Assembly (NCBI GenBank): GCA_030141605.1
Contig: JAQGDQ010000528.1
Coordinates: 89,365-153,364, forward strand
Source of the DNA: Tubiluchus corallicola
Taxonomy: Eukaryota; Animalia; Priapulida
DNA length: 64,000 bases
Direction: 5' to 3'
Each line of letters starts with the position of its first letter. Positions within the stretch are counted from its first letter, which is position 1. The notes below the pieces were generated by a model that saw nothing but the letters and a program-made list of their open reading frames with translations, did no database searches and was not told the origin of the DNA. Positions 1 to 52,762 of the stretch are shown one piece after another. A program made the position numbers and the translations under genes.

Positions 1-3000
1 AGCAATTTTACGGCAATGCACAAATTCGAAAATCACCAAAAAAAGGTAAGTTATTTACTTCATAAGTTTCTTCTGTTTATAAGTTCTCAAACACCAGTAG
101 GTTCTACACGAGTATGTTAAACAAATGCAAAGCAGGGAGTTTACCTGTTTCACAATGATTGCCTGTATAACCTGTTTTACAAGTACAAGAAAAACCACCG
201 TCTTCGTTTCTACATGTGCCCTCGTTTAGACATGGACTATCTGAACATTCATTGATATCTAAAATGTAATGAAAGTGTAATTATTGTAAATGATTTGATG
301 GATAAGAGTGTTTGCTAGATCAAATAAGTATGCAAGAACGTAATAATTGGGACCTGTTAATAAACAGTAATCATCAATATATTCAAGTTTGTTTGTTTGT
401 CTTGGCTTTCGTATCGCTTTTTAAAACTTAGTAATGTCGGAATATAAACTGCAGATTTTGCAAACTCGAAAGGTGCTTAGATTCAGGTATTTCAGATAAA
501 CCTACTTGAGTTACACAGTAAAGTTAGTACTAGTGACCTTGGAGCATCAACGAATTACAAGCTATATTTCCCGGCACAGGAATAAAAGCCAACTTTTTGT
601 TATGTGTGACCAGAGTGTTGGATCTCAAAAAGACTATAATTATCTTCAAACCTGCTTTGGGAAAAATAGTTTTTTGCTGTTGATCGAGTGATTAATATTT
701 CCTGGATAAAGTGATTTTTTTCTAGAACAGAAGAAAAAACAAAAACTACCACATAATAAAATAACAATGTAGTCAGAAACAACAGTGACAACTGCAGAAA
801 TGAAGTGAGCTGTTCCCTGTTTATGCCTAAATTTATTTTGCAAAAGGTTTTAACATGACAAACTTTTAGCGAAATATTGATAGGCTTCAACTTTGCTAAT
901 ATTTTTCCCCTCTCATTGTTTCTGTCACAAGTGGGCTGCAACATTTTTGACATTGATTTATAACTAGCAATTCTGCAACATAATTATTACTTGATCGATT
1001 TTTTTTGGAAAATTCAATTTAATAGTTAAAAAATAAAGACAGTTTGACCTTCAAAAGGCTAAGAATTGCTATATAGTACTTTTTATCAAAATATCATTAC
1101 AAACAATATAGAAAATTAAGTATCTTTAAGTTTTAGCTGTTTCATTTTAGGCACTAAAAGGTTGATACAAATTTTCAATTAGCATCCTCACACCTCAGAC
1201 ACACCTCACCAAAGATCAGTAAACAACACCGGACACCGGTAACCAAAAAAGCTGTCTGTACTACATATGTCGTTCTCGCTTACTTGCGCCAAATGTGCGA
1301 AACCTAGCAATTTTACGGCAATGCACAAATTCGAAAATCACGAGAAAAAGGTAAGTTATTTACTTCATAAGTTTCTTATGTTTATAAGTTCTCAAACACC
1401 AGTATGTTCTACATGAGTATGTTAAACAAGTGCAAAGCAGGAAGTTTACCTGTTTCACAATGATTGCCTGTATAACCTGTTTTACAAGTACAAGAAAAAC
1501 CACCATCTTCGTTTCTACATGTGCCCTCGTTTAGACATGGACTATCAGAGCATTCATTGATGTCTAAAATGTAATGAAAGTATAAGTAAATGATTTGATG
1601 GATAAGAGTGTTTGCTAGATCAAATAAGTACGCAAGAATGAAATAATTGTGACCTGTTAGTAAACAGTAATCAACAGTTTATTCAAGTTTGTTTGTTTTG
1701 GCTTGGATTTCGCTTTTTAAAACTCAGTAATGTAAGAATATAATTTACAGATTTTGCAAACTCGAAAGGTGCTTAGATTCAGATATATTAGATAAACCTA
1801 CATGAGTGACACAGCAAAGTTAGTACTAGTGACCTTGGAGCATCAACGAATTACAAGCTATATTTCCCGGCACAGGAATAAAAGCCAACATTTTGTTATG
1901 TGTGACCAGAGTGTTGGATCTCAAAAAGACCATAATTATCTTCAAACCTGGGTTGGGAAAAATAGTTTTTTGTTGTTGACCGAGTGATTAATATTTCCTG
2001 GATAAAGTGATTTTTTTCTAGAACAGGAGAAAAAACAAAAACTACCACATAATAAAATAACAATGTAGTCAGAAACAACAGTGACATCTGCAGAAATGAA
2101 GTGAGCTGTTCCCTGTTTACGCCTAAATTTATTTTGCAAAAGGTTTTAACATGACAAACTTTTAGCGAAATATGGATAGGCTACAATATTTTTGACATTG
2201 ATTGATAACTAGCAATTCTGCAACAATATTATTACTTAATCGATTTTTCTCGGAAAATTCAATTTAATAGTTGAAAAAATAAAGACAGTTTGGCCTCCAA
2301 AAGGCCAAGAATTGCTATATAGTACTTTTCATCAAAATATCATAACAAACAATATAGAAAATTAAGTAGCATTAAGTTTTAGCTGTTTTATTTTAGGCAC
2401 TAAAAGGTTGATGCAAATTTTTAATGAACATCGTCACACCTCAGACACACCTCACCAAAGATCAGTGAACAACACCGGACACCGGTAACCAAAAAAGGTG
2501 TCTGTACTACATATGTCGTTTTCGCTTAGTTGTGCCAAATGTGCGAAACTTAGCAATTTTACAGCAATGCACAAATTCGAAAATCACCAGAAAAAGGTAA
2601 GTTATTTACTTCATAAGTTTCTTCTGTTTATAAGTTCTCAAACACCAGCAGGTTCTACACGAGTATGTTAAACAAGTGCAAAGCAGGAAGTTTACCTGTT
2701 TCACAATGATTGCCTGTATAACCTGTTTTACAAGTACAAGAAAAACCACCGTCTTCGTTTCTACATGTGCCCTCGTTTAGACATGGACTATCAGAGCATT
2801 CATTGATATCTAAAATGTAATGAAAGTATAAGTAAATAATTTGATGGATAAGAGTGTATAAGTACGCAAGAACGCAATAATTGTGACCTGCTAGTAAACA
2901 GTAATCATCAGTTTATTCAAGTTTGTTTGTTTGTTTTGGCTTGCATTTCGCTTTTTAAAACTCAGTAATGTAAGAATATAATTTGCAGATTTTGCAAACT

Positions 3001-3060
3001 GGAAAAGTGCTTAGATTCAGATATTTCAGATAAACCTACATGAGTGACACAGTAAACTTG
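1..3060. repeat. Tandem ~1.25-1.3 kb exon+intron cassette repeat
   Basis: Unit start agcaattttac(g/a)gcaatgcac at 1, 1306, 2552; each unit carries one [16 protein letters not shown]... EGF exon; introns highly similar. Confidence 0.95.
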
Positions 3061-51200: not shown

Positions 51201-52762
51201 CAAGGTAGAATGGGAGAAAGTAGACGCTTACATGTCACAGAAACTCAAACGTCTAACATTTTGTCTTACTTGTTTTCACGCAGTCATCAGAAAACTGCAT
51301 TAAATTGGCTGTATGTTGAGCATCTGGCCAACCACACCCTACTGTGTCATCAAGGTTGTCGCGTCCTTCCTTTGTCCACTTCAGATTACAACCACACACC
51401 ATCCGGTTTCCTAAAAAATCACATTATTATGAGAGGCTCTACTAGGTTGTTTGCGTGGAAACATGACGTAAGATCATGCCATCAGAGAATCGCACGATAC
51501 AGTTAATGACACAAAGGCGTGTTCAGGGTACCGAGTTTCACACCAAGTAACTCGTAAGTTTGTTCAGACTAGAGCGCAAAACTTGCAGCGAGTTACTTTC
51601 AACAGTAAGTGTGAGCTGACACTCACTTCTCTATCCACTGCGAAAACTACAATTGAAAAACATCTAAGCTGTTGAATGGAAACCTTGTTAAAGGTTTTCT
51701 TTAAAAGACACACATGTCATGTTATTGTAATTTAACGAACATAACTTTAGTTGAAATAATGTGAATGTCAGAAAAGTAGTTTGGACTTTGTAAACAAAGT
51801 TAATTTTGCACTTGCACTTTGCACTGTGCGTTAACTGTATAGCTTTTTTCTGTACATGTCTGTTAATTTATCACTTTTTAGCTTGTAAACATATAATCAG
51901 TAAAAAATTCTGTACTCTAGCATTTGCGTAATATAAGTGGTTATTTATTTGTATAGTCTGTCCCTGAATATGACTGCAGACTGCAGTCGAAACGTTTGGA
52001 GACTTTTAACAGTTGGCAATTTAAAGTTTAATGAAATTTGTTTTCCTTTTATAAAAATGTGAGTACCTGTAAAAATGCGTTGTTAATTGTTCTTCAAAGA
52101 ATTTAAACCTATATTGAGATAAAAGGTAAATTACCAGCTAGATTAACTCGTACAGAATGGCGTTGGTTGTTGTAAAAACTTGGTTCCTCTAGCTGTGTTA
52201 TACTGCCATAAGTTATACTGAGACTGACTAAGTATTGATTAGCTGATAGGTCTAGCTCTAGTGCTATCAAATTCTCATTTCTAGTTATAAGAAGCTCACG
52301 AAGAGAGCTCAGTTTATTGAATGCTTTTTTATGTATGCTTTCAAGCCAGAAATTAAAGCTGATGGCCACTTTTTCCACGCCACCATATATAGAATTTTCT
52401 CCTAGAGATGTCAGTTCTGTTAAACTTATAGTGAGCATTGTAGGTGACAGATCTTCTAAAAAATTGTCTGGTAATTCACGGCTTCTGTAATAAGTAATAG
52501 AAAGATGTGCTATCGACGAAGCAGCTCCTTTCATTTTTACCATCCATTGAGCAAGCTGTACTCGTTTTGCGTACAGACAGTATACATCACATTTTTTCTG
52601 ATTTTGGAACTGTACGTCTTGCGGTTTTGTATATGTGCATCTTATGGCCCTATCCTGTAGTTGTATAGCATCATACTCGCAGTGCCTGGCATTCCACGGT
52701 ACTTGTGATGCACATCTGTTAAACATACACCAAGCACTAACGAAAGTAAAAATCAAGTTCAT
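36220..52762 (-). CDS. Gene A: LRR-LRRCT-Ig-like-EGFx10-TM single-pass membrane protein (~944 aa as modelled)
   Basis: Exons (all internal junctions phase 1, GT-AG): 52135-52762 (signal peptide [19 protein letters not shown] + LRRs), 51270-51410 (LRRCT), 49679-50068 (Ig-like), EGF 114-bp exons 49174-49287, 48511-48624, 47793-47906, 47135-47248, 46391-46504, 46023-46136, 45275-45388, 44430-44543, 43047-43160, 41588-41701, tentative S/T stalk 39975-40154, TM 39257-39376, 38711-38749, last exon 36220-36416 (TAA). Summed length 2835 nt is an open frame. Confidence 0.85.
37253..37452. repeat. 34-bp tandem repeat (~6 copies)
   Basis: TCCCATT(G/C)TTTGTGATTGGGTCTGTAC(G/C)TTACTG starting at 37253, 37287, 37321, 37355, 37389, 37423. 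Confidence 0.92.
37500..38100 (-). mobile_element. Decayed LINE ORF2 C-terminal fragment (L2/CR1 group)
   Basis: [12 protein letters not shown]...QSLAYPYL...ILGN...[12 protein letters not shown]...[17 protein letters not shown] resembles the post-RT region. Confidence 0.6.
39257..39376 (-). CDS. Gene A transmembrane exon
   Basis: [39 protein letters not shown]; hydrophobic stretch followed by KK; ttttcag acceptor, gtgagt donor, phase 1/1. Confidence 0.85.
41010..41347 (+). mobile_element. Copy of the 11328-11712 MITE family
   Basis: ggtcaaaggtt...gtaccgcagcaacg...tgcattagtctgt...aaaggctt shared with the 11.3 kb copy. Confidence 0.65.
41588..49287 (-). CDS. Gene A array of ten 114-bp EGF exons
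   Basis: Each exon encodes a six-Cys EGF, e.g. [38 protein letters not shown] (47135-47248), [38 protein letters not shown] (41588-41701); all flanked by AG/GT. Confidence 0.92.
41990..42300. mobile_element. Second inverted pair of the hammerhead-motif repeat
   Basis: tgcagtcatcatcgatgatagattacacaaac...gtttgtgtaatctatcactgacgatgactgca hairpin (42083-42230); same family as 19.5-19.9 kb. Confidence 0.6.
43998..44111 (-). pseudogene. Decayed EGF pseudo-exon in gene A
   Basis: Translates [38 protein letters not shown] (Cys3, Cys4, Cys5 lost); acceptor reads ctg instead of cag/tag. Confidence 0.85.
46747..47930. repeat. Near-identical 658-bp direct duplication of an EGF exon cassette
   Basis: gtagtttgaacgaactttaaacactggc at 46747 and 47405; exon ends at 47135 and 47793. 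Confidence 0.93.
48810..48975. repeat. (CT)n microsatellite
   Basis: Directly visible. Confidence 0.9.
49679..50068 (-). CDS. Gene A exon 3: atypical Ig-like domain
   Basis: ORF 49626-50081; GxxVxM, YWWR (C strand), EDKGGYW (F strand), FLYV (G strand); 390 bp phase 1/1. Confidence 0.8.
51270..51410 (-). CDS. Gene A exon 2: LRR C-terminal cap
   Basis: Translates [47 protein letters not shown], matching the GNxxxCxCxLxW...CxxP...C LRRCT pattern; tag acceptor, gtaag donor. Confidence 0.9.
51955..52003 (+). ncRNA. Degenerate minimal type I hammerhead ribozyme motif
   Basis: gtctgtcc-CTGAATA-t-GACTGCA-gac-TGCAGTC-GAAACGTT-t-ggagac; core G8 is mutated to T. Confidence 0.5.
52135..52762 (-). CDS. 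Gene A exon 1: signal peptide, Cys-rich cap and LRR stack
   Basis: ORF 52109-52804; ATG at 52762; repeats such as [29 protein letters not shown]; donor G|gtaatt after NLA; paralogous to 33054-33675 and 11817-12441. Confidence 0.9.

Follow-up and report, generated by a model that had tools for sequence, protein, structure and literature searches.

A tandem cluster of three LRR-Ig-EGF genes with stalks of different length in the priapulid Tubiluchus corallicola

Proteins with extracellular leucine-rich repeats (LRRs) followed by immunoglobulin (Ig) or FN3 domains, and with no further extracellular domains, form the LRR_Ig/FN3 (LIG) class as defined in the accessible text of PMC2235866; in the survey of human, mouse, fly and worm given there, the class open to EGF domains contains only a single type I membrane protein for each mammal. 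One protein combining LRR, Ig and EGF domains without a TIR domain was reported in the sponge Amphimedon (its domain order is not stated in the available part of PMC6043800). Slit joins LRR to EGF domains, has four LRR domains, LamG and a cystine knot, and is secreted (available part of PMC10084454). In Hydra a TIR-less LRR membrane protein is reported to act with a TIR-only partner, and HyLRR-2 responds to flagellin when given a TIR domain (accessible portions of PMC6043800 and PMC7308585). Clustered receptors of another kind are the tandem Ig superfamily (IgSF) genes of the Hydractinia Alr complex, with atypical Ig (V-set, I-set) and Fn3 domains and divergent tails carrying immunoreceptor tyrosine-based activation or inhibition motifs (ITAM, ITIM; excerpt of PMC9546547), and Botryllus FF/FcoR, with an Ig and Sushi ectodomain and an ITIM or hemITAM tail; the Botryllus fester family moves its Ig head relative to the membrane by splicing of stalk exons (both in the available text of PMC12582321). 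Here we describe three tandem genes, A, B and C, found in 64,000 nucleotides of the T. corallicola genome (assembly GCA_030141605.1, contig JAQGDQ010000528.1, positions 89,365 to 153,364, forward strand; this whole stretch is called the window), which combine an LRR and Ig head with a stalk of EGF domains whose number differs from gene to gene.

The genes correspond to long, related minus-strand frames near 52.8 (A), 33.7 (B) and 12.5 kb (C). Exon borders were taken from automatic lists of AG and GT dinucleotides at the approximate positions and the models were then translated by coordinates. All three are stop-free on the minus strand: gene A from 52762 to 38711 (16 exons, 831 codons), gene B from 33675 to 23327 (7 exons, 516 codons) and gene C from 12441 to 145 (9 exons, 613 codons), where it runs off the window. 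Their exons follow one order, namely signal peptide, about five LRRs, C-terminal LRR cap (LRRCT), Ig domain, EGF exons and, in A and B, a transmembrane (TM) exon. Every intron is in phase 1 and every acceptor is AG (29/29 in both cases); donors are GT in 31 of 32, the single GC donor belonging to the third EGF exon of gene C. This agreement of exon order and phase is far beyond chance, and it bears out the first-pass annotation, a model's note made from the sequence alone, which had described three same-strand paralogs with a common exon structure. From the phases and from the purifying selection reported below we infer that the LRR, Ig, EGF and TM exons lie on one transcript. The cluster is real, well-formed and apparently lineage-specific, the last point having also been proposed in that annotation and agreeing with the lack of close relatives in the sequence searches. 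The products are read here as single-pass surface receptors of a lineage-specific recognition family, a reading to which we assign about an even chance; an immune or self/non-self function is something we only infer.

The stalk exons are the following.

48511-49287, minus strand: gene A EGF1 (49174-49287) and EGF2 (48511-48624), an old and shared stalk section; nucleotide identity with the counterparts in gene C is 79% for EGF1 and 75% for EGF2
41588-47906, minus strand: gene A EGF3-EGF10 array, from translation and DNA comparison (EGF3-9 are 87-95% identical in DNA)
47793-47906, 47135-47248, 46391-46504 and 46023-46136, minus strand: exons EGF3 to EGF6 of that array
45275-45388, 44430-44543, 43047-43160 and 41588-41701, minus strand: exons EGF7 to EGF10 of that array
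43998-44111, minus strand: dead eleventh EGF copy of gene A, found by tblastn (68-80% identical to A EGF3-10)
25723-27428, minus strand: gene B EGF1 (27315-27428) and EGF2 (25723-25836), from a cysteine-pattern scan and translation
4924-7382, minus strand: gene C EGF1 (7269-7382), EGF2 (6497-6610) and EGF3 (4924-5037, with the GC donor)
145-2809, minus strand: gene C EGF4 to EGF6 (2696-2809, 1450-1563 and 145-258), three exon-plus-intron units of 1.25-1.3 kb

All 18 intact EGF exons measure 114 bp and encode six cysteines. The counts of the first-pass annotation are thereby upheld: ten in A, two in B and at least six in C, six lying before the window edge. Pfam EGF matches both EGF exons that were submitted to it, and the single unit scored against EGF_CA falls just below the cut-off. 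By consensus patterns of the Notch type, 13/18 units carry the calcium-binding pattern and 17/18 the O-fucose pattern.

A midpoint-rooted tree of all 19 EGF exons, the dead copy included, unites EGF1 of the three genes (support 98) and EGF2 of A and C (83), and it gathers A EGF3-10 with the dead copy in one group (87) and C EGF3-6 in another (87). Within A EGF3-9 the exons are mismatched at 9.0% and the adjoining introns at 19.8% of positions, and the pooled proportion of synonymous differences (pS) is 0.18 against 0.07 for nonsynonymous ones (pN). The C EGF4-6 exons are 96-98% identical with synonymous changes only, and their introns are 5.7% mismatched with seven gaps. The tree and the exon and intron divergences together indicate that the stalks of A and C were lengthened independently and recently. 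By these comparisons the long stalks are real expansions from a two-EGF ancestor whose length B has kept, and the different stalk lengths remarked upon in the first-pass annotation trace back to exon duplications within each gene. Growth by duplication of one exon together with its intron appears well supported. Because every exon starts and ends in phase 1, the gain, loss or skipping of a stalk exon leaves the frame intact. The dead copy in A has lost its acceptor AG and three of its six cysteines and has retained its donor. It is very improbable that the near-identical copies are assembly artefacts, or that the exons do not belong to single genes: C EGF4-6 are indeed identical in protein, but the copies are distinguishable in DNA, with introns diverging more than exons, phase is kept at all 29 junctions and the exon order repeats three times.

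In the explanation that we prefer, the head of LRRs and Ig would engage an extracellular ligand while projecting from the membrane on an EGF stalk, whose length was changed by duplication of whole 114-bp exons; such an exon could be gained by unequal crossing-over, lost, or potentially skipped in splicing, with the frame kept each time. The calcium-binding and O-fucose patterns make the stalk likely to be a semi-rigid glycosylated spacer. An EGF unit is 2.5-3 nm long, and the head would be held further from the membrane by about 5-6 nm in B or 25-30 nm in A. The most likely setting would be innate recognition or recognition between cells, at the surface of an epithelium or of blood cells, and the paralogs would differ mainly in the Ig domain, the reach and the tail, and less in the LRR face. 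Stalk length might alternatively be a by-product of unequal crossing-over in microsatellite-rich introns, selection only keeping the exons folded; we hold this to be a serious contender with somewhat less than an even chance. Microsatellite tracts are present in most introns of the A array and the duplicated units include introns, one A copy died without harm to the frame, and the expansions are recent and independent. Yet the new copies are under purifying selection in both A and C, and B still has only two units, even though its EGF exons date back to the split of the genes. The by-product account is compatible with our preferred explanation and departs from it only on the meaning of length.

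The LRR part of the head is encoded by exons 1 and 2.

52135-52762, minus strand: gene A exon 1, signal peptide, Cys-rich N-cap and about five LRRs (Pfam, translation, alignment, PDB profile)
51270-51410, minus strand: gene A exon 2, LRRCT cap with four cysteines (translation, comparison)
33054-33675, minus strand: gene B exon 1, signal peptide, N-cap and LRRs (Pfam, translation, alignment)
31124-31261, minus strand: gene B exon 2, LRRCT (translation, comparison)
11817-12441, minus strand: gene C exon 1, signal peptide, N-cap and LRRs (Pfam, translation, alignment)
10281-10421, minus strand: gene C exon 2, LRRCT (translation, comparison)

Exon 1 starts with a hydrophobic, signal-like stretch and matches Pfam LRR_8 in the three genes (E 1e-5, 1e-6 and 7e-5; only B passes the curated cut-off), the Cys-rich cap and the approximately five repeats having been counted by eye. 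Folded alone it gave a poor model (predicted local distance difference test, pLDDT, of 40). Amino acid identity among the paralogs is 54-63% in exon 1, and the ratio of nonsynonymous to synonymous substitution (dN/dS) is 0.33-0.44 in exon 1 and 0.06-0.23 in exon 2, where it is near saturation. Values of 0.06-0.44 across exons 1-3 indicate that the head exons are functional coding sequence under purifying selection. The synonymous distance is smaller in exon 1 than in exon 3 (53/132 versus 49/75 sites for A-C, P 0.0005; P 0.04 for B-C and 0.25 for A-B), which suggests a later exchange of exon 1, or gene conversion, between paralogs; gaps in the Ig alignment may inflate this contrast.

The Ig part of the head is encoded by exon 3.

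49679-50068, minus strand: gene A exon 3, atypical V/I-type Ig (alignment, predicted fold, Foldseek)
29217-29609, minus strand: gene B exon 3, Ig (37% identical to A in alignment, same four cysteines and Trp)
8537-8926, minus strand: gene C exon 3, Ig (43% identical to A in alignment)

Pfam gives no match to exon 3 in any of the three genes, and an Ig profile searched against PDB sequences returns only three weak, unrelated matches. The assignment rests on the fold for gene A and on alignment to A for B and C: the single-sequence prediction for A is a beta-sandwich (pLDDT 75.8), which resembles V- and I-set Ig domains; Foldseek finds 23 matches at E<=0.001, and the best structural match (among many tied rows) has Z 10.0 and a root-mean-square deviation of 2.3 over 93 residues. 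The Ig-like exon of the first-pass annotation is therefore an Ig domain by fold in A. Canonical Ig domains have their second cysteine on the F-strand; the three copies share four cysteines and the C-strand Trp and have Leu or Tyr at the F-strand position, which makes them atypical. Identity among paralogs is 37-43% and dN/dS 0.31-0.39. The head described at first as conserved among paralogs is thus only partly so: the LRR exon retains more identity than the Ig, which is the least conserved part. This divergence and the missing F-strand cysteine could fit a self/non-self (allorecognition) or gamete-recognition locus with Ig domains giving allele-specific binding; the Alr complex is itself defined by tandem IgSF genes, atypical Ig domains and divergent tails (excerpt of PMC9546547), and the fester family shifts its Ig head by stalk-exon splicing (available text of PMC12582321). 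We nevertheless consider such a locus quite unlikely. Neither LRR nor EGF is mentioned for Alr and FF/FcoR in the accessible parts of these sources and the candidate tails described below have no ITAM or ITIM; dN/dS is no higher in the Ig than in the LRR; and two contigs of sequencing run X1 over coding parts of gene C show no high polymorphism, with only 6 differences in about 520 bases and 5 in about 440 (a very small sample from one low-depth run). Extreme polymorphism of alleles, tied to fusion or rejection outcome, is a general mark of allorecognition loci.

Database searches returned relatives of the LRR module only. Word-indexed searches retained 0 of 777 candidates with exon 1 of A, among longer proteins, and 0 of 1563 with the Ig alignment. 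A ten-sequence LRR alignment retrieved 19 generic LRR proteins from 7991 scored; none has a Pfam EGF domain and only P0073 (E 7e-4) has Ig domains. The Atlas search yielded generic LRR clusters only. An exhaustive HMMER search gave 54 matches at E<=0.001, mostly long BspA-type repeat proteins, and nine of the 13 inspected are short proteins from Logan assemblies with the same LRR module (P0001, P0002, P0005, P0006, P0020, P0022, P0036, P0043 and P0044; 22-31% identity in the seven aligned, E 2e-17 to 5e-4). A homologous LRRCT follows this module also in P0005, P0006, P0022 and P0043, and at least four of the short proteins end in a hydrophobic C-terminus soon after it, with neither Ig nor EGF. 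Ten relatives were looked up and all are unnamed single-member clusters, nine from Logan. P0005, P0006, P0020, P0022, P0043 and P0044 form a short LRR-LRRCT group, some with two modules and several with a hydrophobic end resembling a glycosylphosphatidylinositol (GPI) signal; the group itself is apparently undescribed. The head of A, B and C seems to derive from a short LRR module of older date that became joined to an Ig-EGF stalk in this lineage. No full-length relative and no ortholog of a named LRR-Ig subfamily was found by these searches, which can miss distant or unannotated proteins.

The segments behind the stalk are as follows.

40854-40889, minus strand: gene A linker exon, short and rich in Ser/Thr (supported by its splice sites and phase only)
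39257-39376, minus strand: gene A TM exon (translation, hydropathy)
38711-38749, minus strand: gene A predicted first tail exon, 39 bp (best-scoring exon in the interval)
36220-36416, minus strand: gene A predicted last coding exon, acidic, without Tyr, ending in a stop (phase-1 acceptor 6.3, 64 open codons, 42% G+C)
24799-24867, minus strand: gene B linker exon, rich in Thr/Pro (supported by its splice sites and phase only)
23327-23425, minus strand: gene B TM exon (translation, hydropathy)
20126-20149, minus strand: gene B candidate mini-exon of the tail, with all three frames open (splice scoring)
18011-18061, minus strand: gene B candidate exon of the tail, with an open frame in phase 0 only (acceptor 9.5, donor 11.6)
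18313-19247, minus strand: 18-bp array of about 51 units, reading (YDHAQI)n on the gene strand, a candidate tail exon of gene B or an intronic minisatellite

In A and B one hydrophobic segment of 19 residues (mean hydropathy 2.3 and 2.2) follows the stalk and is succeeded by basic residues, as expected from the TM exons that had been annotated in both. Also as annotated, there is no sign of kinase or TIR domains: TIR, kinase and death-domain families match none of the 73 minus-strand open stretches of at least 40 codons behind the A and B TM exons, a scan that would miss a domain split into smaller exons. Without such domains, signalling would pass through a partner chain or an adaptor, or through phosphorylation of the tail. 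Tail exons were searched with splice weights trained on the window's own junctions. The tail of A is likely to be acidic, of about 85 residues and without tyrosine motifs according to this model; the tails called short and poorly alignable in the first-pass annotation are indeed unalignable but probably not short. The tail exons at 36390 (A) and 18061 (B) share a short stretch with 4/7 residues identical, each via a synonymous codon, sitting right at the AG in both genes (read by eye), which suggests that the two tails are distantly homologous. Since exon 18061-18011 of B is open only in phase 0, either a phase-changing exon precedes it or the protein stops early.

The start of the 18-bp array, 19247-18934 (or 18916), is the best of 38 possible phase 1-to-0 exons between 20126 and 18061. 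That it is a tail exon of gene B with at least 17 tyrosine hexapeptide repeats is possible, though rather doubtful. Among 49 inner units 43/71 changes are synonymous (P 0.012, or 0.029 with transition bias, uncorrected), where the three remaining open frames give 8 to 15 of 79, and Tyr is retained in 47/48 units. The frame scores above the Pfam cut-offs for the YdcK beta-solenoid and hexapeptide repeats (71 and 43 bits), so that the array, if coding, might fold as a left-handed beta-helix rather than stay a disordered series of phosphotyrosine sites; a loose beta-helix pattern, written after the repeat was seen, fits 0.55% of shuffled units. On the other side, both splice sites score weakly, the acceptor at 0.6 and the donor at 3.5, which is the low end of the leave-one-out ranges (-0.8 to 13.4 for acceptors and 3.3 to 11.8 for donors). 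The synonymous excess is small when distinct variants are counted (5/17), and a CpG/TpG change accounts for one of the two common variants. The unit represents a palindromic hexamer that has decayed, the array is broken by a 1-bp gap near 18825, the comparison covered three arrays and several frames, other minisatellites of the window also have open frames, and other phase-consistent routes with stronger splice sites bypass the array. Searched in the Atlas, the tyrosine repeat received a low recognition value and brought no useful lead. Several in-frame splice donors lie inside the array. One speculative scheme, rather improbable in our view, is a hitherto undescribed invertebrate receptor system pairing stalk length with the signalling tail: the tail of long-stalked A would be acidic and free of tyrosine motifs, short-stalked B would carry 17 to about 50 cytoplasmic YDHAQI units, and both the reach outside and the phosphotyrosine docking sites inside would be set by copying or splicing repeat units, giving a size-sorted pair of an activating and a damping receptor.

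Further minisatellites, of 27, 34 and 21 bp, lie at 21144-22319, 37253-37452 and 53725-54017; the 34-bp array is in the tail region of gene A, as the 18-bp array is in that of gene B. The 27- and 21-bp arrays have long open frames with no synonymous excess on the gene strand. As a B exon the 27-bp array (21144-22319) would be in frame behind the TM exon, with higher splice scores than the 18-bp array, and only 4/33 changes are synonymous; it is treated as intronic because it has no synonymous excess in the spliceable frame.

Tandem duplication, exon death, unalignable tails and the absence of close relatives are what point to a recognition family, and a comparable fast-turning family is Hydractinia Alr (excerpt of PMC9546547). 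Several observations tell against this assignment. Only three genes are visible within the window, and stalk length may drift without selection on length. With the LRR register set by eye, concave-face positions are identical at 23/30, 16/30 and 14/30 against 46/74, 42/74 and 45/74 elsewhere in the LRR, and a face as conserved as the rest argues against a hypervariable binding surface of the lamprey variable lymphocyte receptor (VLR) kind. In no exon is dN/dS near or above 1, so an arms race leaves no sign here. The LRR profile searched against PDB sequences is led by LRRC15, LINGO1, SALM5 and the Nogo receptor, and also finds LRIG1; by sequence, the nearest solved relatives are neural or developmental proteins, though any short extracellular LRR would match these. 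None of the three candidate tails contains an ITAM or ITIM as defined in the accessible text of PMC9546547. With a conserved LRR face and neither positive selection nor these motifs, an adhesion or developmental role becomes possible and allorecognition less likely. The products could then be adhesion or developmental signalling proteins of the LRIG/AMIGO/LINGO/Kekkon kind with an EGF spacer, engaging a conserved endogenous partner and having no immune role, which is unlikely on balance and yet deserves consideration. The LRR-LRRCT-Ig order fits that class (available text of PMC2235866), the best PDB matches of the LRR profile and two of the top Ig fold matches are such proteins, and the conserved LRR face goes with purifying selection throughout. 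Conserved developmental genes, however, do not usually show tandem duplication together with recent gains and losses of exons. Moreover, the searches found no ortholog of any named LRR-Ig protein, and these classes are by definition without an EGF stalk as far as PMC2235866 is accessible.

The window has 34% G+C, a CpG observed/expected ratio mostly of 0.5-1.0 and numerous microsatellites and minisatellites, a profile like that of many marine invertebrate genomes. A tblastn search of each exon against the window found, outside the modelled exons, only the dead EGF copy and no fourth gene; 53000-64000, upstream of gene A, contains no remnant of a fourth paralog detectable by tblastn and no convincing long coding frame. 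Rfam has no match in the window. Positions 1-14500 were compared with contigs of two sequencing runs, X1 (of a kind not on record) and X2. The X1 contigs align to portions of gene C with 95-99% identity, and all listed X2 pieces fall on repeats; no exon-to-exon joint is present among the 15 of 30 joints listed, which is not evidence on expression. Single X1 contigs at 6769-7691 (gene C EGF1) and 8213-8734 (3' half of the Ig exon) have depths of 84 and 25, and two other long X1 pieces depths of 3 to 5; the high depth is a hint, rather than a measure, of close copies elsewhere in the genome. Copies of a dispersed element of about 300 bp, likely a non-autonomous transposon, occur in both orientations at 8990-9258, 11374-11678 and 41013-41323 with very deep X1 coverage.

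The locus is a clean natural example of a receptor family altering its reach: a single frame-neutral exon was copied on two independent occasions within 53 kb. If length is under selection, the cluster would allow a direct test of receptor-height sorting of signalling at invertebrate cell contacts, and if the tyrosine array is an exon of B, its tail would be unusual among TIR-less LRR receptors. As it stands, this is one more lineage-specific mosaic receptor cluster of a sort common in marine invertebrate genomes, and it adds an LRR-Ig-EGF-TM layout for which the literature search, with most subscription journals beyond its reach, found no named family and only the Amphimedon protein. The available parts of PMC11797021, PMC9334734, PMC5094078 and PMC6208332 hold nothing on an LRR-Ig-EGF membrane family. 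This agrees with the first-pass annotation, which recognized no named family with this order; the combination of LRR, Ig and EGF domains itself is not new, having been reported in Amphimedon (accessible portion of PMC6043800). That protein agrees with A-C in its three domain types and with A and B in the lack of TIR; it was reported as a single protein and not a cluster with variable stalks. Since nothing like it came up in the searches, convergence is at least as likely as homology.

Among the other systems, Toll-like receptors (TLRs) have a cytoplasmic TIR domain and Trk-type receptors a tyrosine kinase, neither of which was found in the open stretches behind the A and B TM exons. Slit differs from A-C, which have one LRR domain (tblastn finds no further LRR exon), a TM helix in A and B, and an Ig between LRR and EGF. 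Vasorin, which we take to be the mammalian type I protein of the class that admits EGF, has LRRs, one EGF, then FN3 and a TM segment; in A-C the Ig lies ahead of several EGF units, and these are followed in A and B by no domain-sized exon. The ectodomains of HyLRR-1 and HyLRR-2 include EGF domains and TLR-like LRR arrays and are not known to include an Ig; both are TIR-less LRR surface proteins like A and B, with no sequence link to A-C found. Alr and FF/FcoR resemble A-C in forming clusters of membrane IgSF genes whose Ig domains are atypical and whose tails diverge, and differ in that neither LRR nor EGF is mentioned for them in the accessible parts of PMC9546547 and PMC12582321 and in their ITAM/ITIM, absent from the A and B candidate tails; Botryllus FcoR as the identity of A-C was ruled out by architecture. 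Compared with the LIG proteins (LRIG, AMIGO, LINGO, LRRN, Kekkon and the Trk ectodomain), A-C have only about five LRRs, an Ig without the canonical F-strand cysteine and 2 to 10 EGF units in the window between Ig and membrane, which the definition in the available text of PMC2235866 excludes. With these proteins they share the signal peptide, the capped LRR and the Ig right after the LRRCT, and A and B, with one TM helix each, also have the TM or GPI anchor of that class. The cluster is a variant of the LRR-Ig membrane proteins.

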